From contig JBIOWC010000196.1 of the NCBI GenBank assembly GCA_044868105.1, forward strand, positions 198 to 64,197: a DNA stretch of 64,000 bases, written 5' to 3'. Shown here in pieces: positions 1 through 59,860 of this stretch. How positions within the stretch are numbered: position 1 is the stretch's first letter; every line of letters starts with the position of its first letter. The translations under genes were made by a program, and so were the position numbers. Under the pieces are notes generated by a model. It saw only the letters and a list, made by a program, of their open reading frames with translations, was not told the DNA's origin and searched no databases. This DNA comes from Blastocatellia bacterium. Its GTDB lineage: Bacteria > Acidobacteriota > Blastocatellia > UBA7656.

Positions 1-2184
1 AAACCGGTTAATGCCGTCGCCTTTTCACCGGATGGAAAATATGTGCTGACGGGAAGCGATGACCATAGCGCGCGTTTATGGAATGTTAAAACGGCTAAGG
101 AAGTACGCCAATTCAGAGGGCATACCAGTCCGATTAACTCCGTCGCTTTTTCGCCTGACGGCCGATTGGTTTTAACCGGAAGCGGCGAAGCTTTTAAGCT
201 GCATAACGATAACCAAGCGTGCTTATGGGATACCCTGAGCGGTAAACAATTGCGGAGTTTTCCGGCGCTTTCGCCCTCGGTCAGCAGTGCAATATTTTCT
301 CCGGACGGCCAGTATGTTCTCACCTGTAATAGCGCCGGGCTGGTTGGCAAAGCCCACAACGCTGTACAGATGTGGAGTGTGCAAACGGGAAAAGAGGTCA
401 GGCGATTTAGCGGTCTTTCGACGTCCGTCAATGCCGTGGTGATGTCGCCTGATGGCAAGTATGTGTTTGCCGGGGGCGATGATTACCTCACCATGGTATG
501 GGACGCTTCAACGGGTAAGGAATTATGTCGTCTATTATCGTTCCAAAATGGCGACTGGGTCGTCGTGGATTCCGTCGGACGCTTCGATACCAACAATCTT
601 GAAGAGGTCAAAGGATTACATTGGATTATGCCTGATGATCCGCTGCGCCCTTTGCCGCTTGAGATTTTTATGCGCGATTACTATGAACCCCGCTTGTTAC
701 CGAGAATCCTGCGCGGCGAGCGCTTTAGCGAACCGAAAAGACTTTCCGAGGTGAACCGTGCCCAACCAAAGGTTGAGATTGTCGGCATCGAAAAATCGCC
801 AGACTCATCCGATTCGGTAACCGTTACCGTAAAAGTATCCCGGTCATCAGAAACGTTTGGCATCGGCGATAAGCGCATAAAACGCGAGACCGAAGTCTAT
901 GATTTGCGATTGTTTCGCAACGGGCAAATCGTCGGGCAATTTCCGGAGTATGAAAATTCCTCTCTGGTTTCTCGTCAAGCCATGTCATTCGCAGAAGAGT
1001 TAATGGTTTGGAGAAAAAACTCGCAGATCAATCTCAACCCGGGTGGCAGTAGAACCATTAAATTTGAAAAGGTGAAACTGCCCCGCACAAGCGATTCCGG
1101 CGAGCTAGAGTTTTCCGCTTATGCGTTTAATGACGATCGTATAAAAAGCCCGTTGTCCCGGATGACGTATGAAAATCCGGAATCGGCATCACCCGTGAAA
1201 GGGCGCGCCTATGTGGTAATGGTAGGAGTCAATGCTTACGAAAATTCCGATTGTGATTTGGCATTTGCAGCCAATGATGTGCGACAGATGCGAAATACGT
1301 TTGTCAAAAAAATCAAAGAAAACGGACAGTATGAAGAGGTAGTCGAAATCCCCCTTACCTCAGATTATGAAGAGAGCGCCAACGGGATTCACCGAGTCAC
1401 CCAACAGCTAGCGACCAAACGTAATATCAAAGCGGTTTTAGATTTGCTTGGCGGTAAACCGCTTGATGAAAAAGTAGCAAAAGGACTACCCAACGTCGAA
1501 AAGATAAGACCGGCGCAACCGGACGATTTGGTCTTGATATTCTTTTCCGGTCATGGCTACGCCGACGAAAAAGGCAATTTTTTTATTGTCCCTTATGATG
1601 TTGGCAAAGGTCGGGTCTGCGCTTTAACGGATGATCTCTTAAATCATTCGATAAACAGTGAAGAGTTAAGCGCCTGGCTTAAATATATAGACGGAGGAGA
1701 AATGTTGATGATTGTGGATACCTGCTATGCGGCGGCGGCGGTCGAGAATAAGCTTTTCAAGCCCGGTCCGATGGGCAGTCGCGGACTCGGGCAATTGGCT
1801 TATGATAAAGGCATGAAAATTCTGGCATCCACACAGGAGGATAATATCGCTGGAGAGATCCGCACGGTTGGGAAAGCGCTGGTCGAACAAGGGTTGTTAT
1901 CTTATGTGCTCACCAGAGAGGGAATAGAAGAAGGCTTGGCTGATTTCAAGCCGAAGGATGGTGTGATTACCATCAGTGAATGGCTGTTATATAGTGTTGA
2001 GCGCGTGCCGCAAATATATAAGGCTAAGTTACAGGAACTCGCTCAACGAGACCAAGACAATAAAGCCAATCCACTTAAACAACAAAGCGGAAAACCCGCC
2101 ATAGAAGTTAATGAGCCTATACAGCAACCTTCATTATTTGATTTCACGAGGAATCGCAAAGACCAGGTATTATTCAAGAAGTGA
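1..2184 (+). CDS. WD40-repeat protein fused to a caspase-like (peptidase C14) domain; 5'-partial because the reading frame is open to window position 1
   Basis: Frame 1 stays open from nt 1 (KPVNAVAFSPDGKYVLTGSDDHSARLWNV...). The N-terminal half has repeated WD40 units (SPDG..V(L/F)TGS, LWD, MWSV). The C-terminal half has a caspase His/Cys dyad context (LIFFSGHGYADEKGNFFIV, then MLMIVDTCYAAAAV). Confidence 0.75.
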   Translation, partial: KPVNAVAFSPDGKYVLTGSDDHSARLWNVKTAKEVRQFRGHTSPINSVAFSPDGRLVLTGSGEAFKLHNDNQACLWDTLSGKQLRSFPALSPSVSSAIFSPDGQYVLTCNSAGLVGKAHNAVQMWSVQTGKEVRRFSGLSTSVNAVVMSPDGKYVFAGGDDYLTMVWDASTGKELCRLLSFQNGDWVVVDSVGRFDTNNLEEVKGLHWIMPDDPLRPLPLEIFMRDYYEPRLLPRILRGERFSEPKRLSEVNRAQPKVEIVGIEKSPDSSDSVTVTVKVSRSSETFGIGDKRIKRETEVYDLRLFRNGQIVGQFPEYENSSLVSRQAMSFAEELMVWRKNSQINLNPGGSRTIKFEKVKLPRTSDSGELEFSAYAFNDDRIKSPLSRMTYENPESASPVKGRAYVVMVGVNAYENSDCDLAFAANDVRQMRNTFVKKIKENGQYEEVVEIPLTSDYEESANGIHRVTQQLATKRNIKAVLDLLGGKPLDEKVAKGLPNVEKIRPAQPDDLVLIFFSGHGYADEKGNFFIVPYDVGKGRVCALTDDLLNHSINSEELSAWLKYIDGGEMLMIVDTCYAAAAVENKLFKPGPMGSRGLGQLAYDKGMKILASTQEDNIAGEIRTVGKALVEQGLLSYVLTREGIEEGLADFKPKDGVITISEWLLYSVERVPQIYKAKLQELAQRDQDNKANPLKQQSGKPAIEVNEPIQQPSLFDFTRNRKDQVLFKK

Positions 2185-2781: not shown

Positions 2782-4791
2782 TTGAGCGTGGGTGACGTAT
2801 TGACTATGCTAGCTGCGCGATTTATGGCAAAGATTTCCTCGCGACTACGATTCTTGACTGAGATAAGCGAATGGTTATCCCGTAGCATCGCCAAACCATC
2901 AGCAGCAAAACCACGTCGTAAACAATGGCTCATCATCTGTGTCAGTATTTTTCTCATCGGGGTCGGTGTGCGCTTGTTGCACTGGCAAGACCTCACGGTT
3001 GAGCTTCAGCAGCAAGAAGAGATGATGCCCGGTCTGGCAAAACATTACAAACAAGAAGCCAAACAGATGCTCGACGAGGGCTACCTCCTTTATCCGGCAA
3101 GCCCGGTTGACCCGGGCGATGCGCGACTCATCTTGCATCCGCCGGGATATGCGTTTTTGATGGCCATCATTTTTCGGCTTTCCGGCGCAATTGATTCGCC
3201 GATCAGGCTGGCGCAAATCATCGGTGACTCACTTGCAGCGGTGTTGATTTTTTTCATTGCTGCAGAATTGTTTCGCCAAGCGATTGCCGTGCTTGCCGGA
3301 TTTCTGGTCGCCTTGTCGCCGCATTTTGCTCACTACTCGCTCTGGCTTTCACCCGATACCTTGCCGGTCTTACCGATATTGATTGCCGCATGGCTTATCA
3401 TTAAAGCGAGCCAGCGACCACGCCTCCCGACGGTCATTCTTGCCGGGGCTATGCTCGGATTATCCTGCTGGCTGCGCGCCAATGCCCTGTTGATTGCCCC
3501 GTTTTTTGCGGTCGCCGTTTTTTTTACCATTGAGCGCAGTAAACGCCTGCTCTATCCTGTCGCGCTGGTTGGCGCGATGGTCGTGGTGATTTCGCCAATC
3601 ACCATTCGCAATTGGATTCTCTATCATCACTTCATTCCAGTTTCGATAGCCGGAGGTGAAAACCTGGTGGTCGGTATTGCCGATGTTGATAAAGAAAAGC
3701 GTTTCGGGATGCCGGCATCGGATGATGAAGCTTCTGACAAAGATGCCGAGTGGCACAACCGCCCGGATTATGCGGTGAGCCTCTGGTCGCCCGATGGCAT
3801 TGAACGCGACCAGTATCGTTACCGGCGCGGGCTTGAAGTCATTCGCGCCAACCCCCGCTGGTTTTTAGGCGCGATGGCTAAACGCGCTATCTTTATGTTG
3901 CGCTATAACGATGCAATTCCTTCGACCTGGCCCTTCAATACGGCTAACGTGCCGTTGGTTGCTGCTGAACCCTCGGTCGGGCAAGCCCCCCTAAGCTTTG
4001 CGGACCAACAACCCACCTGGTCAGCCGATGCCAATCAATTACTGGCTGAAGGAGAACAACTGGCGAAAGCGGCTGAACTAGCCAGCGACGCAAGTGGGCT
4101 CGCGCTACGCGGTGACGGCTCGGCATTTGGAGATCAGTTTCAATCCACAAAGCTTGCGGTTGAACGGCACACCGATTACGCCATCACCTTTTCGGGAAAA
4201 GTCGTGCAGGGTGAAATGGGCATCAAAGTAACCGACGTGAACCGACGCATCACTCTCGATTCGATAATTTTTGCGCAAGACGAAAAAGTAAAGCAGAACG
4301 CTACAAATGGAGAGAGCGAGCCAGCCAAGCAAACGCGCACCCTGTTGTTTACCAGTGGCAACCGTTCGGAAGTGCGTCTGGTGATAAGCAACGATAGAGC
4401 CGATGCCAGGCATCCCGAAATTCGCATCGCAGAGGTTAAATTGTTCAATCTCGGGCCAACTCCCTATCGCTGGACGCGCTATCCGCGTTTGCTGGTTCGC
4501 GCCATTCAGAAAAATATTTTTCAGACGAAATTTTTATTGCCGTTGGTGATTGTCGGTGTGGCGTTGTTGATTTGGGCGCGGGCGCGAAAGTCATTGATTT
4601 TTTTACTCACCGTGCCAACTTACTATATGCTCATCCATTCAGCGTTAAGCACAGAGTATCGTTACATTCTCGCCATTCATTATTTCTTCTTTATCATCGC
4701 CAGCGTGACGCTGTGTTGCTTAAGCCTCGCCGTCAAACAAAGCGCAACCTATTCGCTGAACAAATTCAAAGCTGTCAAAAGCTCGTCCTGA
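2782..4791 (+). CDS. Polytopic membrane glycosyltransferase, family 39 (ArnT/PMT-like) architecture, with a long C-terminal soluble region and a terminal TM segment
   Basis: The 669-aa ORF has more than 10 predicted hydrophobic helices in its first ~300 aa. GT39-like N-terminal loop motifs are present (DEGYLLYPASP..., HPPGYAFLMAIIFRLSG). A hydrophilic ~250-aa domain follows, then a final hydrophobic stretch. Confidence 0.5.
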   Translation: MSVGDVLTMLAARFMAKISSRLRFLTEISEWLSRSIAKPSAAKPRRKQWLIICVSIFLIGVGVRLLHWQDLTVELQQQEEMMPGLAKHYKQEAKQMLDEGYLLYPASPVDPGDARLILHPPGYAFLMAIIFRLSGAIDSPIRLAQIIGDSLAAVLIFFIAAELFRQAIAVLAGFLVALSPHFAHYSLWLSPDTLPVLPILIAAWLIIKASQRPRLPTVILAGAMLGLSCWLRANALLIAPFFAVAVFFTIERSKRLLYPVALVGAMVVVISPITIRNWILYHHFIPVSIAGGENLVVGIADVDKEKRFGMPASDDEASDKDAEWHNRPDYAVSLWSPDGIERDQYRYRRGLEVIRANPRWFLGAMAKRAIFMLRYNDAIPSTWPFNTANVPLVAAEPSVGQAPLSFADQQPTWSADANQLLAEGEQLAKAAELASDASGLALRGDGSAFGDQFQSTKLAVERHTDYAITFSGKVVQGEMGIKVTDVNRRITLDSIIFAQDEKVKQNATNGESEPAKQTRTLLFTSGNRSEVRLVISNDRADARHPEIRIAEVKLFNLGPTPYRWTRYPRLLVRAIQKNIFQTKFLLPLVIVGVALLIWARARKSLIFLLTVPTYYMLIHSALSTEYRYILAIHYFFFIIASVTLCCLSLAVKQSATYSLNKFKAVKSSS

Positions 4792-9882: not shown

Positions 9883-10007
9883 ATCTCCGCACCTCACTTA
9901 CAAAGAATAATTGCTCATCAGCTTTTAATCTTTTGCCTTACCCTCAAGCTTGTGTGTTATGATGCAAACAAACAAAGTTAAAGCTGCCAGTAGAGGTGGG
10001 GAAGCTT

Positions 10008-11294
10008 ATGTCACACGGCAGAAAGTTCAGACAGAGTAGGCGGATTCCTGAAACCGAGCGTTTCTTGTTCGAGCAAAAGTTGACCGGTCGTTATTCACGC
10101 ACTCTTGACCGCACGGATGTCATCAACTTGATCAGAGGCGGTGAAGACACGCATCTGGAATTTAAGATTCGCCTGGTCAATACCGAAAAAATTACTGCTG
10201 AGATTGTCGCCATGGCAAATTCCGGCGGCGGCGCCATGATGTTCGGCGTCAACGACCAGCGCCGCATCGAAGGCCTGGACGACCCCGAATACGTCGAAGA
10301 CCAACTCATCGAAATATGCCGCAATCAAATTAAACCCGCGCTTTTGCCGCGCATTGATAAAGTCTTTTTCGATAACGGCGACCGCATTGTTGTCTTGCAG
10401 GTTGATGACCGTCGCGCTCCGCACGCAACCCCCGACAATCGCTATTTTGTTCGGGTTGGCTCCACCAAACGCGAAGCCGCTGCCGATGAAATCGCTGCCC
10501 TGTTTGCCAAATCGCGTATCCTTGGATACGAAGATTCGCCGCAGGTTCAAGTTGCGGTTGAAGAGATTGATGAAGCATTGGTGTGGAGTTACTTGCGCGA
10601 CCTGGAGGGTGAACTGTTCCGCGAACCTGCGGGTTTTCCGACCGCCCAAGCCCTGCATGATTTATATCTGGCAAAAGAGTACGCTGGCGGCATTAGACCA
10701 ACCCTGGCGGGCGTGTTGCTCTTTGGTCGCAGTGCCGCTGTACAAAAGGCGGCTCCGCAAAGCGCCATCTATTTAACGCGCTATTCGGGTACCACGCTCG
10801 ATTCGCCGGTGGTTGAAAAGAGTGAAGCCTCGGGCAATTTGAGCGTCATGTTTGACCGCGCCCTGGCCTTCATCAAGCGCTATATTGATGTTTGGGATGC
10901 AAAACCACCGAAGTCCCAGAACGGGCAACCAGAGCCGATTTCAGCCCGCGCTAACTATTCGCGCGAAGTAATCATTGAAGCATTGACCAATCTTTTGGTG
11001 CATCGGGATTATTCGATGATGAATTCGCCTTCGCGTATTCTGGTATTCGATGACCGCATCGAACTCATCAATGCCCGGCGAACCAATGGACTGACCCGTA
11101 AATCCGTCGAATATGGTGTGACGGCGCAACCTAATCCGCGCCTTCATCATATCTTCACAGAAGCTGAATACGGGTGCGTATCCTCGCTTCGCGGGATTCC
11201 GGCTTTACGCCGCGCACACTTCGCATTTGCCAAACGCGAGCCGCGCATTTCGCTTCTCAATGACGAATTTCGTTTGGAACTCAACGGAGTTTGA
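10008..11294 (+). CDS. Putative ATP-dependent DNA-binding regulator with AlbA_2 (Schlafen-like 'divergent AAA') and HATPase_c_4 domains (RecG-like C-terminal family)
   Basis: EDTHLEFK motif and the AEIVAMANSGGG hallmark of AlbA_2. The C-terminal IIEALTNLLVHRDYS motif is typical of HATPase_c_4. A SD (GAGGTGGGG) precedes the ATG at 10008. Confidence 0.7.
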   Translation: MSHGRKFRQSRRIPETERFLFEQKLTGRYSRTLDRTDVINLIRGGEDTHLEFKIRLVNTEKITAEIVAMANSGGGAMMFGVNDQRRIEGLDDPEYVEDQLIEICRNQIKPALLPRIDKVFFDNGDRIVVLQVDDRRAPHATPDNRYFVRVGSTKREAAADEIAALFAKSRILGYEDSPQVQVAVEEIDEALVWSYLRDLEGELFREPAGFPTAQALHDLYLAKEYAGGIRPTLAGVLLFGRSAAVQKAAPQSAIYLTRYSGTTLDSPVVEKSEASGNLSVMFDRALAFIKRYIDVWDAKPPKSQNGQPEPISARANYSREVIIEALTNLLVHRDYSMMNSPSRILVFDDRIELINARRTNGLTRKSVEYGVTAQPNPRLHHIFTEAEYGCVSSLRGIPALRRAHFAFAKREPRISLLNDEFRLELNGV

Positions 11295-20642: not shown

Positions 20643-23504
20643 GTGAAACTTATGAAAGCAATCCCAGGGCGATTTTTTCGTTCGCTAACCTGTGTCTTTG
20701 GCGCTCTTTTCTGCCTGGTTTTCTTTGTTCAGGGCAATTACAGCTTAAACAAAGAGTCGGTGCGGCGTGACCTTGGATTAAATTTTCAGATTGATAAAAC
20801 CGGCAAGACGGAAATCTTCATCACTTTTTTCGCCGAGCCGCCGCCCGTCGAACGATTGCAAACGGCGCTGGCGGATTCGCTGGGCTGCGCGATTGAAAAC
20901 GCGAGCCTTGAAAAAATTGACCTCAAGGCTGACCCGGTTGATGCGGACGAAGACGAGTTCGATGAGGAGGGTTTAGACCCCGAAGACCAACCGGTTCCCT
21001 CCCAGGCGCAAAGCCCGGCCTTGCAATCCGCAGCGACAGAGTCGCCAAGCTCAATAACCTGCTACTGGGTATTTAAAGCGACAGCCGTTGCTTTCACCCA
21101 ACGGGGATTTTATTTTGCAGGCGCCATCCGTGTCGCGCCACTCCTTGAATTATTCAAAGCTTATGACATAAAAACTTTAACCGTTACCGTCATGCATCCG
21201 CGTTGGGGATCAGCCGATTGCACGACCGGCGAATCGGTATTCGGCAAAGGCGACCTCGGTTATCACCTCTACCGCCTTTCAGTTGATCATCCGTCATTGC
21301 CGACCATCAACATTGGCTTCGGTTACCAATCGTCGGCCTTCATCCTGCCGTTGGCGCTGACCGTCGCTTTTCTGATTCTGCCTGTCGTCCTGGTAAGCTT
21401 GCTGCGCTGGATGGTTTTACGCGCTCACGGTGACGCCCAGTACACGGCATGGGTGCGTTTGTGGCAGACGACCAGTTGGGTTTCAATTCTGGTCTGGGTC
21501 GGGTGGAGTTTTATTTTTTCATTCCGCTCGATGCTCGAAATATTCAGCCTGCTTTGGTCAACTGGCACGTCGGTCTTGCACGCAGGATTTAATATCGCCA
21601 TCTATCTTATCCCGCCCATTCTGGTCGTTGGAATCTGTTACGCCTTGATGCTCTCGGTGCACACACGTTTGCGCGGCATCATTTTTACCTGGAAAGATAT
21701 GGCGCGGCAGGTCTTGTTGGAACAGGTTGCTGGCATCATCCTTGTGCTTTTCGTTACCCTCGGCATCACCAATATTTTTACGGCGCCACGACGCGGCCTG
21801 TTGTGGTTAGTCGCCGCCTTTGCGAGCGCCTCAATCGTTGCCCAATTGAAAAAGCGGGGGTTGAACTTAAAGCCCTTTGCTCTGGAAGTCGGTGATTTGC
21901 GCGACCGAATATTTGAGCTGGCACAGCGTTGCGGCGTCAAATTGAAACAGGTCTATGTGCTGCCGGAAGATCAATTCAAAATGGTTAATGCGATGGCCAG
22001 CAATCAAGACCACATCATTTTGACCAACGCGCTGCTCACCAATTTAACCAAGCCTGAGGTAGATGCGGTGGTCGGCCACGAATTGGGGCATCTGAAACAC
22101 AATCACCCAAAAACCCTGGGGATGATTTTTGTTGGCGGAATTATGTTCTTGCAAATTGGTTCCGGCCTGGTCGAGGCCTTGCTGCGGGTAGATTTCGCCT
22201 TCAGCCTGTGCGTCCTGGTCTATTTGCTGACGACCAACTTCCTCTCGCGCAAGTTTGAATATACGGCGGATATGCATTCCGCTTATTTGATGGGCGATGC
22301 GCGCCCCTTGATTGCGGCGCTGACCAAAATGAATCGGCTGATGTTGCTACCCGTGAGCAGCAACAAAATGCATGAGTTGATTTCAACTCATCCGACGACC
22401 GCCAACCGCGTAGAAGCGTTGGCGCGTTTTGGCAACATTCCCGCCGAAGAGTTAAACGCCTTAGTCAGCGAATCTCCCGCGTCAGATGAACCGGCAACGG
22501 CGGCCTATCAAGCGCTCGCTGCTACTGAAGGCTATGACCTCGCGCCGATTGTGGCGAACGAAAGCCGAATTTTTTCTTCGGATTTCAAAAAGCGGCTATC
22601 AGCGCGCGTCACCTGGTTGATGATTGGCGCCCTGGTTCTGGTGCCGGCGCTGGTGGCTCTGGTCGCGCAAATTTTAAACATCAGTGGAGTGATGAAGTGG
22701 ATGGTGTATGGCGCAGGTTTTCTTGCGGCGCTCGCAGCCTTCTTTTGGGTAGCCAACGTGCCTCCGGTCTGGGGCTGTCAAGCGCTGATGAAAAAATGGC
22801 GCGAAAAATTAGAAAATGAAGGAATTTTTCCCGAAGCCTGGCAAGGAATTTTCGTCGGTCTATCGCCTTCACCTGAACTGATGACTTACGAAAATAATAC
22901 CGACTGGGATATTGGCTATCTCTTCCTTAACCGCGACCGACTCTGTTATGTCGGCGAGCAGGCCCGCTTTGCTTTGCGCTCGGACCAGGTTGTTGAAATC
23001 AAGCTGATGAATGATTCGCTCGGCTGGTTAAAGTACGAGCGCGTCCACATACATTGGTTCGACGCTGAGAAAAATGCCGTTAAGACTTTGAATATCCATT
23101 CCTGCGCGGCACGTTCAATTCTGGATGGCAATCGCCAATCGCGCGAGCTGGCGCAAAAACTGCGCGCCTGGAAAAGTCCTGCGACCCTAGGCCCGGAGCT
23201 TCAACCGCGGCTCGCTGATTTGCCCACGCCGAAGCTTGGCGAAGTCACCGGCACGCCTACAGGGCAATCCCTGGCACGAGGGAAATGGCTAATCAATTCT
23301 CTCTACCTGACGGGGATGGCCGCCGTTGCCGCCTTATTTTCGCAGTTATCATTTAATCCTCAAAAAGGTGGCGCAGCGCTCTATGTGGTAAGCGTCACCT
23401 GGTTGCTTTCTTACCTTCAGGCTCTGCCGGTGCTTGCCCGCAACCGAAAACAGAGAATGAAAGCCAAGCAACAAGCGCTCGCTTATTCCCAACCGGGAAG
23501 TTAA
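20643..23504 (+). CDS. Large polytopic membrane protein containing an M48 (HtpX/Ste24-like) zinc-metallopeptidase domain with N- and C-terminal extensions
   Basis: VVGHELGHLKHNH (HEXXH) followed by EYTADMHSA (third zinc ligand, ExxAD). Multiple TM blocks lie on both sides. 953 aa. A near-consensus promoter sits about 55 bp upstream. Confidence 0.65.
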   Translation: MKLMKAIPGRFFRSLTCVFGALFCLVFFVQGNYSLNKESVRRDLGLNFQIDKTGKTEIFITFFAEPPPVERLQTALADSLGCAIENASLEKIDLKADPVDADEDEFDEEGLDPEDQPVPSQAQSPALQSAATESPSSITCYWVFKATAVAFTQRGFYFAGAIRVAPLLELFKAYDIKTLTVTVMHPRWGSADCTTGESVFGKGDLGYHLYRLSVDHPSLPTINIGFGYQSSAFILPLALTVAFLILPVVLVSLLRWMVLRAHGDAQYTAWVRLWQTTSWVSILVWVGWSFIFSFRSMLEIFSLLWSTGTSVLHAGFNIAIYLIPPILVVGICYALMLSVHTRLRGIIFTWKDMARQVLLEQVAGIILVLFVTLGITNIFTAPRRGLLWLVAAFASASIVAQLKKRGLNLKPFALEVGDLRDRIFELAQRCGVKLKQVYVLPEDQFKMVNAMASNQDHIILTNALLTNLTKPEVDAVVGHELGHLKHNHPKTLGMIFVGGIMFLQIGSGLVEALLRVDFAFSLCVLVYLLTTNFLSRKFEYTADMHSAYLMGDARPLIAALTKMNRLMLLPVSSNKMHELISTHPTTANRVEALARFGNIPAEELNALVSESPASDEPATAAYQALAATEGYDLAPIVANESRIFSSDFKKRLSARVTWLMIGALVLVPALVALVAQILNISGVMKWMVYGAGFLAALAAFFWVANVPPVWGCQALMKKWREKLENEGIFPEAWQGIFVGLSPSPELMTYENNTDWDIGYLFLNRDRLCYVGEQARFALRSDQVVEIKLMNDSLGWLKYERVHIHWFDAEKNAVKTLNIHSCAARSILDGNRQSRELAQKLRAWKSPATLGPELQPRLADLPTPKLGEVTGTPTGQSLARGKWLINSLYLTGMAAVAALFSQLSFNPQKGGAALYVVSVTWLLSYLQALPVLARNRKQRMKAKQQALAYSQPGS

Positions 23505-32597: not shown

Positions 32598-32782
32598 GCC
32601 CCGAAGGGGCGAGATTCAATAGCTTAGGGCAACGCCCGGAGAAATGCAGGTCTCGGTTCTCAAGCCCTGAAAGGGCGACATTAGCTACCCCGATTTATTT
32701 CGCCCTTTCAGGGCTTTTCGTTTTCATGCCCGACATTTCCCGGCGCGATACGCCGGGCTATTGAATTGCGCCCTTTCAGGGC
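32598..32782. repeat. Cluster of REP-like 13-nt palindromic hairpins (GCCCTGAAAGGGC and variants) in both orientations
   Basis: GCCCCGAAGGGGC (32598-32610), GCCCTGAAAGGGC (32664-32676), GCCCTTTCAGGGC (32702-32714), GCCCTTTCAGGGC (32770-32782), plus CCCGGCG-CGATA-CGCCGGG (32739-32757). All lie in the 308-bp spacer between the SUKH-like gene and the ABC ATPase start. Confidence 0.65.
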
Positions 32783-32869
32783 TTCGCTCAACTTTATAAA
32801 ACCGAACAAGGCTACTTACTTTCGGTGATTGAACATTCGCAATGCAGCGACCGGATTCATCATATGCGA

Positions 32870-45228: not shown

Positions 45229-48200
45229 TCAAAAAACAATCTTCGCTCCGATTTGTACATTGCGCGGCAGGTTGTTCTGGCTCGTCACCTTGCCGAAGTT
45301 TGAACTCGTCGGGTCGGTATTGGGGTCGCCGAACTGCGGGTGATTGAAGGCATTGAGGAATTCGCCGCGCAGTTGAAATTTCACCTTTTCGGTTATCGAA
45401 AAGTTCTTGATAACCGAAAGGTCCCACAGATTGAGCGGTTGACGACGGAAGCCGGTCAGGCGCGACGGGAAGACGCGCACATTATTGACCAGTCTGATGC
45501 GTTGGTCGGCGCGCTGTTTCGCAGGGTCTACGACCCCATTGGTCTGCACCGCCGCATCGCTGAAATAGAACCCGCTGGTATCAAAGGTTCCCTCTACGGT
45601 GTTGCCGGTGATGTCGGCGCGCAGCTTACTGGGGTCGCCATTGAAATAGACATTGCGGTCGCTGAGGTCAATGGGGCGACCGCTCTGCCATTGATAAATG
45701 CCTTGCACCTGCCAGCCGCCGATGAAGGCATCAACCAGGCCGTTCCAATCGGCGCCCAACTTGCGCCCCCGGCCAAACGGCAATTCCCAGATGCCGCTCA
45801 CCACGACGCGATGCGGAATGTCATCCGAGCCGATGCGCCGCTCGTACGTCGTATCCGACTCGTTCAGGAAGGTCACCTCTTCAATCACCTTCGACCAGGT
45901 GTAGTTTCCAAGCAACGTAAAGCCACCGGTGAAGCGCCGTTCGATGCGAAATTGCGCGCCGTGATAGATGGCCGTGCCATCGTCACGCCGCGTCCGTATG
46001 CGACCGAACTGCGGGAAGGGGCGCAGCAGTTGTTGCCGTTGGATGGTTGAGCCGTTGAAGTTGGTGCCTGGCAGTAACCCTTGGAAGGGGTTTTTGACGT
46101 TGGCGGTCAGGGCGTTATTGGTCGCATCATCGCGCACCGAACTGGTTGACAGATATTGGCGCGGGATGGCGTTTGTCACGATGTTGTCATTCGAGGCATT
46201 GCCGGTCGTGATGGCGTAAGCGCGGTTGCCGATATAGGCCGCCTCGACCAGCCATTCGCCCGGCAGTTCACGTTGAAGGCTCAATTCCCAGCGCGCCGTC
46301 TGCGCGTTATCTCTATCGGTCGGGTAAAAGTCAAGGTCCCGGCCGAGAAAGGTCGCCAGCCCCAGGGTCGCGCCCGGCGGCTCGGCAACGCCCGTCGGGA
46401 AGGGGTTGAAGAGATTGCCGCAGCTCGCGCAAGCCGGCGCAAACGTCAGCCCGGCATTCAAGGTCGGCACAATGTTGGTCGCTTGCGAGAAACCCGTCTG
46501 CATGACGCCGTCAATGACGAAAGGCGCCGTGTAGATGCCGAAGCCGCCGCGCGCGACCGTCTTATCATTTACCTGATAAGCAAAACCGACGCGCGGTTGG
46601 AAATTGTTCTTGTCGGCCACCCAGAACCCCCGATTGCGTTTGTCGGCAAAAAGCAAGCCGCCTTTCACACTGAAACCGCTCACCGGAATTTCGGGAATCG
46701 GGTTTGCCGCGTAGGCAGCTTTTGCCGCCGTTTCTATGGGGCTGCTGGCGGTTTCATCAAAACCGCGAAGGTTGCGGTCGAATCGTTCTGTGGTCGCGCC
46801 TTCGACCTCATAGCGCAGACCGAGATTCAAGGTCAGTTTGCGACTGACCTTCCAATCATCGTGAAAGAAGAGGCCGCTATAGAGGGTTTGATTCGAGCGC
46901 GCCGCGTTGCGGTCAATAAATCCGCCGGTCGGCAGTCCCAGTAAGAAGGAGGCGAATTCCTGACCGATGGCCGCAGCAGTTGAGTTATCGAGCGGGCCGC
47001 GCGTGAAGTTGGTGCTGAAGTCGTAGCGTCCGGCCGCGTGAGCCGCGGGACTGCTGTTTTCCCTGTAGGAGCGGAAATCGTAGCCCATCTTGAACGAGTG
47101 GCTGGCGACAATTTTAGTCAGCGTCGGTTGCACCGAGTAGATATTGTGCGTGCGGATGTCGCCGCGACTGTCGCCGATGTTGGAAAAGCTGCCCGCAGGA
47201 AATTCAAAACGCGGCAGATATTTTCCGGTGCCGAAAAAGCCTACCGATTGCGGCGAGAAACCGAGACTCGCAGGCTCGAAGGTGCCTTCGTGCTGACGGA
47301 CGTTGGTTTCGAGAAACCGCGAAAAGCCGAGGCGAAAATCTAAAATCATGGTCGGCGAAAAGGTGTACACGTGGTCGTAGCTGAAGCCATCGTTTTTACG
47401 CGTCAGGAAATTGCCCGTCGATAGCAGGCCATTGACCTCGCCCGACCAGTTGCTGCGCGCCTCTAAGCGATTGTTATGCGTATAGCGGAAATAAAATTTC
47501 TGTTTGTCGCTGACCGTCTGGTCAAAGCGATAACTTTCGGAATGGAAGCGGTCGGTGCGCGGTTGTCCGCTGATGAAATTGTTGCGCCCCTGTGAATCGC
47601 CCGGCTGGTTGGGCAACGGGTAATATTTCAGATAAGCCAGGGCAATCGGGCTCAGCAGGTTTTGCGGAATCTTATTGCCGGGGAAAGGGTCGCGGCGTAT
47701 GCGTGAGCCTTCTGCCCGGGCGGTGAACGGGTTATAAATCTGGAAACTGGCGTTAACGGCGAGCAGCGCCGACAGGTCGCCGTTGCGCTCGGCTTCGGTC
47801 GGAACCGTAAACAGCGCCGGCTCCGGGAAGACATCTTTCAGGCGCTCATAGGCAAAGAAGAAGAAACTGCGGTCGCGCCCGTTATAGATTTTCGGAATAT
47901 AGATGGGACCGCCGAGGGTCGCGCCGTAGCGGTTGTAACGCAGCGGGTCGCGGTCGGCTTTGCCATCCTTGTCCTTGTCGCGCGCCGGGTTGGCCGCCAG
48001 ATTGGTGCGATTGATAAAGAAGTCATTGGCCGAGAGCACATCATTGCGGACAAATTCATAGACCGTGCCGTGCAGACTGTTGGTGCCGCTGCGCAAGGCG
48101 ACATTGACGGCCGCGCCCGCCCCGTGTCCTTGCTGGGCATCGAAACTCGCGGTCTCGACTTTGAACTCCTGCACGGCGTCGGCCGGCGGAATAAAGGCAA

Positions 48201-48852
48201 CGCGATTGCCGCCGCTGCCGTTATCGTCGGTGTTGGGCACGCCGTCGAGCGTGAATTCGTGACCGCCGACTCGCGGCACCCCGTCCGAAATGAAATCCGA
48301 ACTCCCGTTATTATCGAAGGGTCGCGAAAATTTGAGGTCGCCAACGTAGCCGATGCCCGGCGCCAGCCTGGTCAGCGTGAACGGGTTGCCGTCCGAAAGC
48401 GGCAATTCCGAGATGCGCCGCCGGTCAATGACCTGCCCTGCTGATGCCGAGCTGGATTCGAGAAGCGGCGCCGACGCGACGACGCTGACGGTCTGCTCGA
48501 CGCCGCCCACTTCAAGCGCCAGGTCGAGGGTTAATTTATCGCCGACGCGCACCTCGATGCCCTGGTTGACGAATTTCTTAAATCCTTGCGCCTCGACCGT
48601 CACCGAATACTTGCCCGGCACCAGATAAAATACCGAATAGTTGCCGTCCCCGTCCGAGTTGACCGCGGTCGAGGTATTCATGTTGATATTGGTAATCGTG
48701 ATGCGCGCGCCGGCCACAACGGCGCCGGTGGCATCGCTGACGCGCCCGGTAATTGAGCCGCGCGATTCCTGAGCGGCAACGGTCGCGAGCAGTAGTTGCG
48801 AACCGAGCGCGACCGCAAGCAAGCAGCTAATGGTTTGATGTCTCCTTTTCAT
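45229..48852 (-). CDS. TonB-dependent outer-membrane receptor with an N-terminal carboxypeptidase-regulatory-like (CarbopepD_reg) domain
   Basis: Signal peptide, then GSITGRVSDATGAVVAGARITITN...GDGNYSVFYLVPGKYSVTVEAQGFK (the CarbopepD_reg fold). A plug domain and a long beta-barrel follow, ending in a C-terminal aromatic residue (..IGAKIVF). 1207 aa. Confidence 0.9.
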   Translation of the reverse strand: MKRRHQTISCLLAVALGSQLLLATVAAQESRGSITGRVSDATGAVVAGARITITNINMNTSTAVNSDGDGNYSVFYLVPGKYSVTVEAQGFKKFVNQGIEVRVGDKLTLDLALEVGGVEQTVSVVASAPLLESSSASAGQVIDRRRISELPLSDGNPFTLTRLAPGIGYVGDLKFSRPFDNNGSSDFISDGVPRVGGHEFTLDGVPNTDDNGSGGNRVAFIPPADAVQEFKVETASFDAQQGHGAGAAVNVALRSGTNSLHGTVYEFVRNDVLSANDFFINRTNLAANPARDKDKDGKADRDPLRYNRYGATLGGPIYIPKIYNGRDRSFFFFAYERLKDVFPEPALFTVPTEAERNGDLSALLAVNASFQIYNPFTARAEGSRIRRDPFPGNKIPQNLLSPIALAYLKYYPLPNQPGDSQGRNNFISGQPRTDRFHSESYRFDQTVSDKQKFYFRYTHNNRLEARSNWSGEVNGLLSTGNFLTRKNDGFSYDHVYTFSPTMILDFRLGFSRFLETNVRQHEGTFEPASLGFSPQSVGFFGTGKYLPRFEFPAGSFSNIGDSRGDIRTHNIYSVQPTLTKIVASHSFKMGYDFRSYRENSSPAAHAAGRYDFSTNFTRGPLDNSTAAAIGQEFASFLLGLPTGGFIDRNAARSNQTLYSGLFFHDDWKVSRKLTLNLGLRYEVEGATTERFDRNLRGFDETASSPIETAAKAAYAANPIPEIPVSGFSVKGGLLFADKRNRGFWVADKNNFQPRVGFAYQVNDKTVARGGFGIYTAPFVIDGVMQTGFSQATNIVPTLNAGLTFAPACASCGNLFNPFPTGVAEPPGATLGLATFLGRDLDFYPTDRDNAQTARWELSLQRELPGEWLVEAAYIGNRAYAITTGNASNDNIVTNAIPRQYLSTSSVRDDATNNALTANVKNPFQGLLPGTNFNGSTIQRQQLLRPFPQFGRIRTRRDDGTAIYHGAQFRIERRFTGGFTLLGNYTWSKVIEEVTFLNESDTTYERRIGSDDIPHRVVVSGIWELPFGRGRKLGADWNGLVDAFIGGWQVQGIYQWQSGRPIDLSDRNVYFNGDPSKLRADITGNTVEGTFDTSGFYFSDAAVQTNGVVDPAKQRADQRIRLVNNVRVFPSRLTGFRRQPLNLWDLSVIKNFSITEKVKFQLRGEFLNAFNHPQFGDPNTDPTSSNFGKVTSQNNLPRNVQIGAKIVF

Positions 48853-48975
48853 AGATTGCCTCCCTGGGTGAACGGAGTTCGGGCTGCGCCACCCGAACTT
48901 CTCCTCCGGATGTACTGCATAATGGTTCGGCGCGACGCTTCGCCTATACCTGCTGCGTCGCCCGTTTTTCCGAGC

Positions 48976-49920
48976 CTATTCAATCCTTGTTTGGTTTCGT
49001 TCGCTGAGCGCGCGGGCAACCGGCGCGAGGCGCTCCTGTTGCCCGACGGATAAATCTGAAAGATAAGGCGGAACCGCGCCGGTCCGGGCTATCCCTGCGC
49101 CTTCGGTTGCAAAATGTAGGACCTTCGCCGGACTCCAGGCGTCGCGCAAATCTTCAAGCGGTAGAAAGTGAGCGCGCAAGATTTCGGCTTGCTCGAAATC
49201 CCCCGCCGCACAAGCCTCAAATAACGCCTGACTGAGTCGCGGCCCAAGGCAGCCCGAACCGGTGGTGAAACCGGCCAACTGCCAGTCGCGCAGATGCACG
49301 ACCGCCGGGCGTTCGCCAATGCCGCTCAGAATAAATCGCCGGTCAACCCGTCTCAGCAAAGCTTCAAGATAAGCATCGCGTCGCGGGTCGTGGCGCACTA
49401 CCGCATACTTGATGGCCGCGCATACTCCGTCTTCAACCAGCCGCGCGACCATATCAAGGCCCGCTTCTTTATCCGTGCCGAGGTTGTTTTCCTCTTTCAG
49501 ATAAACCATCAGTTGGGTCTTAGCGGCTGCGGCAAATTCTCGGTAACCCAGCTCCAGGCCTGCTATGTCGCGCGGGTCGTTGCACGGCAGCACCATCACG
49601 CAAGGAAATGCATAGCGGCCAATCATGGGCGCTTGATCCATCAGCCGCCCGTAAGCCGGTCCCGCACTCGGAATGGCCCATAACTCATCGTTGAATTTGC
49701 TGAGCCAGTCGAGGAGCTGCTCGTACTCGGCAAGCGTCAGGTGATACAAAAACGCATTGCCGCCGTAAATGAATCGGGTAATGCCGCCTGCGGCAATGTG
49801 ACGGACAAGCAAATCGTTCTGCTCGAAAGCAAGCGAGCGGCGCGCGCCCTGGGCTCGCGCCAGGGGTGGCACGGCAAACACGCCGCGTAAATCTTCTGCT
49901 TGTACAGGTGTGGTTTTCAT
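48976..49920 (-). CDS. DapA-family (dihydrodipicolinate synthase-like) class I aldolase
   Basis: LRGVFAVPPLAR...LLVRHIAAGGITRFIYGGNAFLY parallels the DapA-family N-terminal barrel. 314 aa. Confidence 0.5.
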   Translation of the reverse strand: MKTTPVQAEDLRGVFAVPPLARAQGARRSLAFEQNDLLVRHIAAGGITRFIYGGNAFLYHLTLAEYEQLLDWLSKFNDELWAIPSAGPAYGRLMDQAPMIGRYAFPCVMVLPCNDPRDIAGLELGYREFAAAAKTQLMVYLKEENNLGTDKEAGLDMVARLVEDGVCAAIKYAVVRHDPRRDAYLEALLRRVDRRFILSGIGERPAVVHLRDWQLAGFTTGSGCLGPRLSQALFEACAAGDFEQAEILRAHFLPLEDLRDAWSPAKVLHFATEGAGIARTGAVPPYLSDLSVGQQERLAPVARALSERNQTRIE

Positions 49921-49933
49921 CTAGCGCCTCTTC

Positions 49934-52357
49934 TCATCGGAATAAAATTTGATACGGCTTTCCGGCCCTCAGCTTCAACCGCAGCGCGCCATCCGTCAGC
50001 TTAGATACCGGAAGACTTTTGCCGTCTTCTAAGACGCGTTCAATCTGTTGACCAGGTGGTGGGCGGAGTTTCTGCTCAAGGCTTACCTGAGGGCGCAACC
50101 TGGCAGTCGTCGCTTTGCCCGCTGCCCACTGCAAATCAACTTCAATTGCCCCGCGCGCCCGCAGTCCGTTGATTGACCCTGCGGCCCAGGCCGTCGGTAG
50201 CGCCGGAAGCAATTGCAGTTCTCCCGCCTGGCTTTGCACGAGCATCTCAGCCATACCGGCGGCGCCGCCGAAATTCCCGTCAATCTGAAAGGGCGGGTGA
50301 TTATCCAGCAGATTCGCAAGCGTTGATTTGGCGAGCAGCGCCACCAGGTTTTCATGCGCTAAATTCCCTTCTTCCAGTCGCGCCCAGAAATTAATTATCC
50401 AGGCCCGGCTCCACCCCGTGTGCCCGCTTCCGGCTTGCAGGCGGCGTTCCAGCGATAGGCGCGCGGCGTGTGCCAGTTCCGGCGTGCCGCGCAAGGTAAT
50501 TTGATTGCCCGGGTGCAGCGCGAACAGGTGCGAGATGTGGCGATGTCCGGGGTCGGCTTCGTCATAATCTTCAAGCCATTCCTGCAACTGCCCGTGTTTG
50601 CCGATGCGCAGCGGCGCCAGGCGCTCTAAAGCCGTGGTCGCGCGCGCCCTGAACGCTTCATCAATACGGAGCAGGCGGCTCGCTTCGACGACGCGGCTCA
50701 AGAGCGCCTGCGCAATCTCCGTATCCATCGTCGGTCCCATACACAATTTGACCGCCGCGCCATCCGGCGCCAGATAGCGATTTTCAGGCGAAAGCGACGG
50801 ACCGGTTATTAAATGTCCCTGGCTATCGGTGACCAGGTAATCGAGCAAAAATTCGGCGGCCTCTTTCATTACCGGGTAAGCCCGGCGCGCCAGAAATTCG
50901 CGGTTGCGCGTGAAATCATAATGCTCCCATAAATGTAAACTGAGCCAGGCCCCGCCCATCGGCCAAAGCCCTGCGTGAACGCCATCAATCGGCACGGCGT
51001 GCCCCCACAAATCCGTGTTGTGATGGATGACGAAGCCGCGCGCCCGGTAAAGATTTTTAGCAACCCGTCGCCCATCTTCGCGGGCCTGGTCGAGCAGATC
51101 GAATAACGGCGTGTGGAGCTCTGAAAGGTTGCCAACTTCGGCAAGCCAGTAGTTCATCTCGGTGTTGATATTGATGGTGTACTTGCTGTCCCAAGAGGGA
51201 CTGAGTTGCGCGTTCCACTTGCCTTGCAGATTTGCCGCCATGGCCCCCGGACGACTGCTTGAGATGAGCAGGTAACGCGCGAACTGAAAATATAGCGTTT
51301 CAAGCCCCAGGTCGCTTGCGCCCTCGGCGACCCGGCGCAATCGTTCGTCGGTCGGAAGCTCCAGGTTGGGCGCCGCAAGATGAAAGGTAAGGCGACGAAA
51401 GAGACGCTGATAATCGGCAACATGAGCGGCGCGCAGTTGGGCGTAAGGCTTGCGCGCGGCGGCAAGGTAGGCGTCACATTTTTCGGCCGGCCGCGCTGAG
51501 CGAAAATTGGTCGCCGCCGCAAAGATGAGCGTCGCCGCATCGGCGGTTTCGACTTTCACTTCGCTGCCCGTAACAGAGAGTCGCCCCCCTTCGGGAATCA
51601 CTTTGACTACACCTTGAAATTTGACGCCGACCTTGCGCTCAAGCTCGTGGCGTTCACCGCGCGCAATCGCTTCACCGCGAATTACCAAGCGGTCAGGCTT
51701 TGCCGTATCGGTCTGACTATCTTGTTCGCGGGTGAGCGTGGTCGAAAAACTGAGGCCGCCCGGCCGGTCACAGGTCAGGCGCATGACGATGACTTGATCA
51801 ACCGCCGAGGCAAAAACTTCGCGGCTAAATTGCGCTTCTTTGCAGCGGTAGGTTAGGCGTGCGATGCCGGTGTCGAGGTCTAACTGGCGAAGATAATCGC
51901 GCGCCTCTTCCTGACCCTGGAAACGCAGGAGCCAATCGCCGAGCGGTTGATACGGCGGCAGGCGCTTGGGAATCGCAATGAGAGTTCGCTCAGCGAGCGC
52001 CTCGGCCTCTTGCGGTTTGCCCGCAAAGAGCAGCCGCCGCACTTCGGCAAGCTGAGCTGCGCCTTCGGGGTTCAGGCGGTCACGTTTTTCTCCCGCCCAG
52101 ATGGTCTCTTCGTTCAATTGCAGGCGCTCGTTTTGAAGGCCCCCGAAGACCATCGCCGCCAGTCGCCCGTTGCCAATCGGCAGCGCCTCATTCCAGTTGG
52201 CGGCCGGCTGGCGATACCACAATCGCAGGGGTTGAGGAGTGGCCGTCAAGGCCGTAGTCGCGGTTGTCAATAGATGCCAAAGAAAAACGCCGGTAAATAA
52301 ACGCGGCAGAAAATTTTGGTTAAGGAGCGTCATCAAGGGCAGCGATTTTTTTCTCAT
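49934..52357 (-). CDS. Glycoside hydrolase family 95 (alpha-L-fucosidase / alpha-1,2-fucosidase-like)
   Basis: The N-terminal signature [30 protein letters not shown] is characteristic of GH95. 807 aa with a signal peptide. Confidence 0.8.
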
Positions 52358-52624
52358 GAAGGCGTCTCCCTGGGATTAGTCGAGGAGTAGAATTCGCCGC
52401 TATGCGGCGCTTGAATTTAGCCTGGTCTTTCAAGGCTGGGAACGCTGCATCGTTCAACAGGTTTCGTTGCTGACCCGACGCCACAATCTATCAATCAACG
52501 CGCAACCGGGCCTTAAAAGACCCAGCTCACTTCGTTTTGCGGCTCGTTGTATGTTGGTCCGCCGGCGGTTGATGCAAAAGCTTTGCTCCTTCCAGTCCTT
52601 TCAACTTAACGGCCGCTTGATGAT

Positions 52625-53896
52625 TCAGAATTTAATCACTTGTCCTGCTTCGATGGCTTGATTGGCAAGCAGCACAGACCGGGCGGCATTGTAACCGACC
52701 TGGAAATTCACTTCGGCCTGCTTACCCGAACGGATGCAGGAAACGAAAGACTCTAATTCCCGATAGACCGCGCTCGCCCGTTGTCGGTTTGGGGTCTCGA
52801 CTTGCGTCCCTGCTTGCTGACTCGGTTGTGAAGCTTTCATGGTTTCGCCGGTCGCGGTGATGACGGTCGCGCCATCGGCTTTAACGAGTTCGGGGGATTC
52901 TTTCTCGCGAAAATAGAGCGCTTGATTCCACCCCATTTCAATGGTGCCTTCGGTGCCCATAATAACCATCTTCTCGCCGTCATGCGCATTGGTTGTCGTC
53001 GAAGTAAACATCGCTTTTTGACCGGCGGGATAGCTGTAGACGACTGTCACATTATCGTAAGTTTCGCGCCCGTCTTTCCAGTAATCTATGCCCCCGAGGC
53101 CGGTCACCGAAGCCGGCGTTGAATCATAAATCAGGTTGACGATTTCAATCATATGGGCGCCGAGTTCGGCCATCAGTCCCTGCGAATAGCGTTTGTACAT
53201 GCGCCAGTTGATTAAGTGTTCAAGGTCCTCGTAGCCCCAGGGGCGCGGGTCGAAATCGCTTTTCGGAACCGGTCGCCGCCAGTTGCCATTGCGATGCCAG
53301 TGGCAGCGAATGTGTGTGACCTTGCCGAGCGCTCCGTCTCGCGACATCGCCAGGACTTTATGAATCACCGGGTCAAAGCGGTGCTGATGGCCGACCTGCG
53401 CGACCAGCTTGGATTGCGCGCGCGCGGCTTTGAGCATCTGTTCGCCTTGCGCAACTGAATAAGCCATGGTCTTTTCAACAAAGACATGTTTACCGGCGCT
53501 GAGCGCGGCGAGGGCGATCTCAGCATGCAGATGAAGCGGCGTGGCAATGACGACTGCATCCACATCTTTGCTGGCGATGAGCTTGCGATAATCGTTAAAG
53601 GTTTTCGGCGCGCCGCCCGCAAGCCCAACGGCTTTTTTCAAATTCGGTTCAAAGATGTCGCAGATTGCCGTGATGCGCGCATTCGTTACGGTTGCCAGAT
53701 TCCGTGTGAGTCCACTGCCCTGACCGCCGACGCCGATAAGGCCCACTTGAACCTGCTCGTTGGCGCTCGGCGCGGCCACCAAAACCTTTTCGCTTGCGGC
53801 GGTGAGCATCAACCCGGCCGCGCCGAGGGTTGTGGTCTCCAGAAAATTGCGTCTTGAGAACTTCTCTTGGTTTTTTGACATAACGGCTTCCTTCAA
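52625..53896 (-). CDS. Tat-exported Gfo/Idh/MocA-family oxidoreductase (periplasmic sugar dehydrogenase-like)
   Basis: Tat motif SRRNFLETTTLGAAGL, then Rossmann VGLIGVGGQG and the Gfo/Idh/MocA N- and C-terminal domains. It overlaps the upstream apbE by 4 bp. Confidence 0.85.
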   Translation of the reverse strand: MKEAVMSKNQEKFSRRNFLETTTLGAAGLMLTAASEKVLVAAPSANEQVQVGLIGVGGQGSGLTRNLATVTNARITAICDIFEPNLKKAVGLAGGAPKTFNDYRKLIASKDVDAVVIATPLHLHAEIALAALSAGKHVFVEKTMAYSVAQGEQMLKAARAQSKLVAQVGHQHRFDPVIHKVLAMSRDGALGKVTHIRCHWHRNGNWRRPVPKSDFDPRPWGYEDLEHLINWRMYKRYSQGLMAELGAHMIEIVNLIYDSTPASVTGLGGIDYWKDGRETYDNVTVVYSYPAGQKAMFTSTTTNAHDGEKMVIMGTEGTIEMGWNQALYFREKESPELVKADGATVITATGETMKASQPSQQAGTQVETPNRQRASAVYRELESFVSCIRSGKQAEVNFQVGYNAARSVLLANQAIEAGQVIKF

Positions 53897-54960: not shown

Positions 54961-55018
54961 CCGAAGTAATCCCTCGTCTGTTCAACTGTCGTCTGAATAC
55001 ACCCTGGGCGCGTCATCG

Positions 55019-56965: not shown

Positions 56966-57035
56966 ACCTTTTTCCTGAAAATTATTAAAAAAATGGCCCT
57001 GCCTGATTTCAACCCGGGTTTTGAAACCTGCGTTT

Positions 57036-58289: not shown

Positions 58290-58498
58290 ATCCGATTGGT
58301 AAACCGACTTCTCCTTTGACCACGATTTTCCGTCAATCCGCAAAAGGATGAAGAAGCGACAAGCTCAAAGGGTGAAGAGGCGATTGGGAAAAACCATCCA
58401 AACAATTTCTCAATCTTGATTCGCAAATCCCTCTGGTCGAAGAAGTGAATGACCATCGAATCGTCAGCTCTTCATTTTTTTCTTGTGCGCTGGCGACG

Positions 58499-59818: not shown

Positions 59819-59860
59819 GGTAATTTGTCGCTCTCCTTACTTAAGAAGTTAATCCTCAAC

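Follow-up and report, generated by a model that had tools for sequence, protein, structure and literature searches.

WD40 repeats are the commonest accessory domain of prokaryotic caspase homologues (10.9% of 671, PMC3501461), some cyanobacterial orthocaspases carry WD40 repeats at the C-terminus (PMC5756287), and metacaspase-NACHT-WD40 architectures exist in bacteria (PMC3501461). N-terminal helices, possibly signal peptides, and possible extracellular roles of such proteins were already discussed in 2012 (PMC3501461). Ser/Thr kinases often neighbour prokaryotic WD40 genes (PMC5587647), and one bacterial Ser/Thr kinase family carries a C-terminal DUF4384 domain (bioRxiv 10.1101/2025.01.12.632604). 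The latter domain has frequently been found fused to proteases, and in some Csx30 proteins, which are substrates of a CHAT protease, it makes up the C-terminal domain (bioRxiv 10.1101/2022.08.17.504292). In this work, a 64,000-nucleotide (nt) stretch of a contig from a Blastocatellia bacterium (JBIOWC010000196.1; the whole stretch is referred to as the window) was analyzed with respect to the gene at its start, of which it contains the 3' part (positions 1–2184, + strand, 727 codons plus stop codon; the 5' end lies outside). We consider it fairly probable (about 0.6) that this gene encodes an exported protein of ~1,200 amino acids (aa), composed of a WD40 double propeller, an immunoglobulin (Ig)-like domain and a caspase-like protease, which would serve regulated proteolysis or signalling in the cell envelope and not as a cytoplasmic NLR-like death switch, the role favoured by the original prediction made from the DNA. 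No paper describing a WD40-Ig-caspase family was found in the literature.

The described proteins that come closest are orthocaspases with WD40 repeats (Trichodesmium TeMC9, Gloeobacter; PMC5756287, PMC3501461), which have in common with the window product a C14 p20-type domain, the His-Cys dyad, the fusion to WD40 and the aligned acidic S1 positions. These cyanobacterial proteins have the protease at their N-terminus and the WD40 repeats at their C-terminus, often together with NACHT, whereas members of the window family are mostly from Acidobacteriota, are predicted to be exported, and consist of a signal peptide, 14 blades, an Ig-like domain and a C-terminal protease. Arabidopsis AtMC9 and AtMC4 (8A53, 6W8R) and Geobacter GSU0716 (3BIJ) are single-domain or p20-linker-p10 proteins that have neither propellers nor an Ig-like domain. 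The MALT1 paracaspase (3UO8), the top structural match in Foldseek, likewise combines a caspase-like with an Ig-like domain; however, its Ig3 domain follows the protease, and the protein, which contains a death domain but no WD40, acts as a scaffold in the cytoplasm. Craspase (type III-E Cas7-11 with the TPR-CHAT protease Csx29 and its substrate Csx30) is similar in the use of a clan-CD protease, a repeat scaffold and a dedicated partner. In one group of Csx30 proteins the C-terminal domain is DUF4384 (bioRxiv 10.1101/2022.08.17.504292), a domain type that is present beside relatives of the window gene only and not in the window itself. Craspase is cytoplasmic, RNA-guided and of the CHAT type, whereas the window gene codes for a C14 protease and no CRISPR genes were seen. 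Prolyl oligopeptidase S9, tricorn and the secreted clan-CD gingipains belong to different catalytic families and offer an analogy of mechanism only.

Architecture and predicted export of the WD40-Ig-caspase protein

Reading frame 1 of the + strand contains no stop codon between base 1 and the TGA at 2182–2184, confirming that the open reading frame (ORF) runs off the window edge, and the two other + strand frames across 1–2184 are rich in stop codons. A database protein from a 64,980-bp NCBI contig (P0001, 764 aa) is 100% identical to the window product and reaches 37 aa upstream of window base 1 into the preceding WD40 blade. It opens with MLTGSG, the Met being located in the middle of a blade where relatives read V/I-LTGS, which suggests that this start represents a gene call forced to an internal position near the contig end and not the true start. 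As the source contig provides at most 980 bp beyond the window and a full-length gene requires ~1.4 kb more, the gene is probably truncated by the assembly itself. Apart from P0001, the protein database contained no sequence more than 56% identical to the window product, and the best match in a scan of species-representative genomes was 51% identical. The next relatives (≤56% identity) have a length of ~1,100–1,250 aa.

Full-length relatives are arranged as signal peptide, low-complexity linker, 14 WD40 blades, Ig-like domain and C-terminal caspase. Their N-termini exhibit a basic stretch, a hydrophobic core, an AxA-like site and the linker, after which PxLVVQLGHS opens the first blade. Among the 119 best, mostly full-length homologues, a strong hydrophobic core was present in 97 (96 in another heuristic run), Lys or Arg preceded the core in 91, and a small-x-small site followed it in 95. 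The median uncharged stretch was 15 aa, which is the length of a signal peptide rather than of a membrane anchor. The closest relative (P0002, 55% identity) looked N-terminally truncated; extension of the ORF in its locus, L081, gave the signal peptide MRVPKLLRLCGACALVALAVQPCDRVAQA. Upstream of the window an N-terminal NTPase or effector domain had been expected, yet every full-length relative examined has a signal peptide, a short linker and ten more blades at this place, and none of them showed a NACHT, NB-ARC or effector domain. A scan of the N-terminal extensions of longer members for NTPase and effector domains turned up nothing beyond WD40 repeats and a DUF4384 match below threshold. By analogy, we infer that the window protein is exported to the periplasm or the cell surface. 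Signal-peptide-like N-termini place such a protein outside the cytoplasm and therefore fit poorly to a cytoplasmic death switch.

The window itself contains four WD40 blades (positions 1–543, + strand, aa 1–181), with the blade cores VAFSPDG at aa 6, VAFSPDG at aa 48, AIFSPDG at aa 97 and VVMSPDG at aa 146, where at least seven had been counted before. They correspond to blades 11–14 of the 14-blade double propeller of full-length relatives; the expected continuation of the blades upstream is borne out by the 37 additional residues of P0001 and by the 14 blades in the consensus of aligned full-length relatives. The Pfam WD40 match to the window product scored 107 bits (cut-off 27), and a closing β-hairpin segment follows the fourth window blade. 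A model of the relative P0003 (predicted local distance difference test, pLDDT, 85; predicted template modelling score, pTM, 0.82) comprised an N-terminal helix, a disordered linker, 14 four-stranded blades, a β-sandwich and the caspase domain. Its best Foldseek match was the 14-repeat double propeller 2YMU (38% identity), and further matches were to the tandem seven-bladed propellers of Aip1, Utp proteins and Apaf-1. The repeats of the family are accordingly modelled as closed seven-bladed WD40 propellers in tandem, four blades of which are in the window.

Between the WD40 repeats and the caspase domain, ~210 aa (aa ~182–400) without any Pfam match had escaped the original prediction. This region (positions 544–1200, + strand) is made up of closing β-hairpins, a short helical linker (EIFMRDYYEPRLLPRIL) and an Ig/FN3-like β-sandwich (aa ~257–391). 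An AlphaFold2 model of aa 175–727, built on 53 homologues, had a mean pLDDT of 85 and a pTM of 0.88, with high-pLDDT secondary structure in the middle region, for which Foldseek returned FnIII-like and Ig-like modules at a probability of 0.99. Many columns of this region are nearly invariant in alignment A1. For the model as a whole, MALT1 and procaspase-7 held the top Foldseek ranks.

Positions 1204–2181 (+ strand) code for a peptidase C14 (caspase/metacaspase-like) domain with the α/β fold of the caspase-haemoglobinase type and the conserved C-terminal tail QQPSLFDF. The C-terminal 327 aa gave a match to PF00656 (25.4 bits, gathering score 21.4, E = 1.3e-5). The original prediction had thus recognized the kind of fusion, WD40 repeats followed by C14, correctly, and the intact dyad was found where it had been placed earlier, with the catalytic His518 (codon 1552–1554, + strand) in SGHG (nt 1546–1557) and the catalytic Cys575 (codon 1723–1725, + strand) in IVDTCYAA (DTCYAA, nt 1717–1734). 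Both residues are invariant in alignments A1, A2 and A5 and align to SGHG and DSCHSG of AtMC4, respectively. A regular expression recovered the D-x-C motif in 118 of 120 proteins, and sequences missed by a stricter His pattern still displayed an HG motif when printed, with one ambiguous case (P0094). A profile of 14 protease-domain sequences found metacaspase-4 among PDB sequences (E = 0.0037), with GvN..aaND, SsHG and DaChS aligned to GIN..CVND, SGHG and DSCHSG; a PDB sequence search with a single caspase-domain sequence gave nothing useful.

In metacaspase structures two Asp residues line the S1 pocket, the counterparts of which we take to be Asp426 in the AAND motif (codon 1276–1278, + strand; invariant D27 of alignment A2, aligned to CVND of AtMC4) and Asp573, two residues before the catalytic Cys (codon 1717–1719, + strand; invariant D174 of A2, aligned to the Asp of AtMC4 DSC). 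Caspases have Gln where Asp573 stands. The acidic S1 pocket of metacaspases is tied to P1 Arg/Lys specificity in the metacaspase literature; MALT1 has Arg specificity, and the Arabidopsis metacaspases are eukaryotic enzymes regulated by Ca or by pH. Because both acidic S1-pocket positions are conserved, the protease of the window probably cleaves after Arg or Lys. The loop after the catalytic Cys (positions 1732–1779, + strand; AAAVENKLFKPGPMGS, then RGLGQ) is highly conserved and at the same time modelled at low confidence (pLDDT <50 at model residues 404–419). Its F-K-P-G-P-M-G-S-R-G stretch is nearly invariant, flexible and K/R-containing, and NKLFKPGPMGSRG may serve as an active-site or autoprocessing loop.

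The family and the genes beside its members

The Ig-caspase module, searched without the WD40 part, matched at least 1,850 representatives of 50%-identity clusters (E ≤1e-30) and is nearly always C-terminal in proteins of 1,100–1,900 aa. Genomes of GTDB species (one genome per species) yielded 501 loci, the best 80 of which were used for the analyses of loci and neighbouring genes unless otherwise stated. Judged from record titles, 55 of these 80 are from Acidobacteriota lineages (Pyrinomonadaceae, Blastocatellia and others), the other listed loci including Planctomycetota, Gemmatimonadota, Armatimonadota and several Proteobacteria. Some genomes contain several copies, such as three loci on CAWDRU010000002.1. 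Members are named 'caspase family protein' by NCBI and 'WD40 repeat protein / uncharacterized caspase-like protein' by JGI. Eight records of metagenome-assembled genomes with close members of the family (L002, L015, L027, L042, L056, L059, L072 and L075) are titled 'uncultured Clostridia', 'Enterobacteriaceae' or 'Heliomicrobium', with best relatives that are acidobacterial; the titles may be placeholders or the contigs mis-binned.

ORFs around the 80 loci were clustered, and a Pfam census was made of 94 immediate neighbours at loci outside a UvrD synteny block (see below) and at two members of this block. The most frequent domains were Pkinase (10), Peptidase_C14 (8), CHAT (5) and Peptidase_S8 (4). 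A partner gene was located within 500 nt in 22 of the 80 loci (about a quarter). The partners are membrane Ser/Thr kinases whose extracytoplasmic domain is DUF4384-like, secreted proteins of the DUF4384-like kind, TPR-CHAT proteins that are exported, or other exported caspases. In tests that ignore shared ancestry, Ser/Thr kinases were enriched at the adjacent position (10/136 versus 13/589 in the rest of the 10-kb flanks, p = 0.005), as were TPR-CHAT proteins (p = 0.008) and other C14 proteins (p = 0.012). N-termini resembling signal peptides were also found in the TPR-CHAT and C14 neighbours. Among the neighbours of relatives PADLOC matched nothing but models with kinase domains, for example PD-T4-6, on account of the generic kinase fold.

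The neighbouring kinases consist of a cytoplasmic kinase domain, one hydrophobic (transmembrane) segment and a C-terminal domain which, like the small secreted neighbours, matches DUF4384, mostly below the Pfam cut-off. A locally built DUF4384-like hidden Markov model gave matches in kinases and secreted neighbours of 12 loci, and also in the N-terminal extension of two family members (L003 and L056); this domain fusion supports a functional link between the DUF4384-like domain and the family. A module of a kinase with transmembrane segment and DUF4384-like domain, a WD40-caspase and a secreted DUF4384-like protein was found at L001 (6036–12787), L003, L043, L044, L047, L054, L056, L059, L061, L064, L065 and L074, in many cases with the stop codon of one gene overlapping the start of the next. 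At L001, L056 and L066 the kinase operons are tight and overlapping. All four of the closest relatives are in partner-gene clusters: L001 has the tight kinase/WD40-caspase/DUF4384 operon, in L082 and L083 the downstream genes include one of the cyclase-like-DUF4384 type and one for DUF4384, and in L081 (1144–19729) two paralogous TPR-CHAT genes are located upstream of P0002. After P0002 there are IS110, rve and IS240 transposase genes, and this copy is thus situated in a region rich in mobile elements.

A block of UvrD, HhH (polymerase-X-like) and FHA-GAF-SpoIIE genes is common to ~23 Pyrinomonadaceae loci. A functional neighbourhood was considered for it and rejected in favour of ordinary synteny among related genomes.

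Surroundings of the gene in the window

The stop codon is followed after 49 nt by a short GC hairpin (positions 2233–2245, + strand), a weak terminator-like site that matches the consensus only. It is part of a repeat-rich spacer of ~600 bp (2185–2781), in which three tandem 26-nt units (2494–2571), a 28-nt direct pair (2346–2373 and 2408–2435, 93% identical), a 29-nt pair (2610–2638 and 2652–2680) and a 47-nt inverted repeat (2449–2495 and 2551–2597, 81% complementary) were identified. A search of the window with the 26-nt unit and the 28-nt pair revealed no copies outside the spacer. The GC content of the gene is 47.9%, that of the window 53.2%. Horizontal transfer, considered on account of this difference, was rejected because the surrounding 12 kb span 46% to 54%.

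Beyond the spacer the genes are metabolic and encode a PMT_2 glycosyltransferase (2782–4791), a ferritin-like protein, an SDR and a Rieske protein. None of the seven downstream ORFs up to position 11,294, PMT_2 included, was found beside any relative, except for one weak SDR match. The last of them (9996–11294, + strand), for a 432-aa protein in which a Schlafen AlbA_2 domain and, weakly, HATPase_c_4 were matched, is the only gene in the vicinity that can be linked in any way to nucleic-acid sensing, and other genes separate it from the caspase gene. As a whole, the remaining window has the look of an acidobacterial chromosome. Further away on the + strand, an unusually long protein of 953 aa (20643–23504) has a Peptidase_M48 domain confined to aa 417–594, and an Rfam match to the Acido-Lenti-1 small RNA (32739–32783, 41.5 bits, gathering score 37) fits the Acidobacteriota origin. 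On the − strand, two large genes for CarboxypepD_reg plus outer-membrane β-barrel (TonB-dependent-like) proteins (45229–48852 and 59861–63547) enclose glycoside hydrolase genes of families GH95 (49934–52357) and GH97 (55019–56965), and the region 45229–63547 looks like a polysaccharide-utilisation cluster. ARAGORN detected no tRNA gene across the whole 64 kb.

Proposed function of the family and alternative explanations

The predicted sequence of events begins with a signal peptide that would export the protein to the periplasm or the cell surface. There the double propeller may serve as a platform recruiting protein partners or substrates, and the C-terminal clan-CD C14 protease of the metacaspase/orthocaspase type, with its His518/Cys575 dyad, would cleave after Arg or Lys. 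Part of the family is coupled genetically to receptor kinases bearing DUF4384 and to other exported clan-CD proteases, which suggests regulated proteolysis or signalling. Since partner genes stand beside many relatives, regulated proteolysis or signalling in the cell envelope is the most likely role.

Several observations weigh against this assignment. The signal peptide of the window copy is an extrapolation from relatives whose identity does not exceed 56%, its own N-terminus lying outside the window, and the signal peptides of these relatives were judged through hydrophobicity and cleavage-site heuristics, not by a trained predictor. The margin of the PF00656 match over its cut-off is small, and both the peptidase activity and its specificity are read from the conservation of motifs. 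In 58 of the 80 loci no partner is adjacent, 23 of these sharing the housekeeping UvrD-type synteny block, and the enrichment tests take no account of common descent. No kinase, DUF4384-like domain, second caspase domain or paralogue was detected in any frame of the 64-kb window. A signalling role may hence be limited to part of the family.

The envelope-signalling assignment has to be compared with three other explanations. One of them, rather unlikely in our view, is an exported protease of general degradative function, which would help in acquiring nutrients or in turning over envelope proteins and the propellers of which would act solely as a substrate filter as in prolyl oligopeptidases and tricorn, with no dedicated partner. 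The signal peptides, the several paralogues per genome (as in the three loci on one contig mentioned above), the lack of a partner gene in 58 of the 80 loci and in the window, and the wealth of envelope and polysaccharide-utilisation genes in the window are all compatible with such an enzyme. It is at odds with the enrichment of partner genes at the adjacent position, with the DUF4384-like domain fused into two members and with the tight overlapping kinase operons at L001, L056 and L066; moreover, caspase-fold enzymes are typically processing proteases of narrow specificity. Another explanation, that the window copy is truncated or broken and represents a pseudogene or assembly fragment instead of encoding a functional full-length protein, could draw on the short P0001 with its mid-blade Met start and on a contig that is only 980 bp longer than the window. 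An in-blade start is, however, what a gene caller is expected to give at or near a contig end, and the uninterrupted 727-codon ORF, in which the dyad and the nearly invariant residues of the family are all intact, argues against decay, which makes this explanation quite improbable.

The third explanation is that of the original prediction, a protein of the NLR/STAND kind acting in regulated cell death or conflict in the cytoplasm, in which a missing NACHT/NB-ARC or effector part would complete the protein, WD40 would sense an invader and the caspase would execute. It can appeal to the bacterial metacaspase-NACHT-WD40 architectures (PMC3501461), to the TPR-CHAT and other caspase genes that adjoin some relatives, and to two weak matches of the window product, a generic PADLOC 'caspase' match of 27 bits and the NCBIfam model for EACC1-associated caspases (NF047832). 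The latter scored 38.5 bits at a cut-off of 140, and PADLOC returned no system-specific model with partner genes from the window and generic kinase domains only from the neighbours of relatives. Every N-terminus read among the 119 homologues was a signal peptide followed by WD40, with no NTPase, the domain order is reversed compared with caspase-NACHT-WD40 proteins, and the neighbouring CHAT and C14 proteins carry signal peptides, too. What lies upstream in the relatives is WD40 only, longer variants adding just further WD40 repeats or a DUF4384-like segment, and conflict-type neighbours are missing on the visible side of the window and in 58 of the 80 related loci. The neighbours in the window are metabolic. 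Taken together with the export signals of the relatives, which contradict a cytoplasmic location, a protein of this kind is very improbable here.

Within the envelope-signalling assignment, a more specific model can be put forward as a speculation that we regard as unlikely. According to this model, the exported WD40-caspases, often together with TPR-CHAT or C14 proteases, would constitute an undescribed extracytoplasmic caspase system; they would dock on or cleave DUF4384 modules of secreted proteins and of kinase or cyclase ectodomains, and proteolysis in the periplasm would switch phosphorylation or nucleotide signalling in the cytoplasm. The missing region upstream of the window might encode such a DUF4384-type partner.

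For the window, the result is mainly corrective: what is seen of the gene does not belong to a death or defence system of the NLR-like type, but adds a further member to a very large group from soil Acidobacteriota that has been annotated automatically, and a bacterial caspase homologue fused to WD40 is in itself a known kind of protein. The members of this group look exported, which would put caspase-fold proteases in the bacterial envelope. The part of most wider interest is the module at the level of the family: its recurrent link to DUF4384 receptor kinases and exported TPR-CHAT proteins offers a testable idea on the function of DUF4384 and on signalling by caspase homologues without cell killing.

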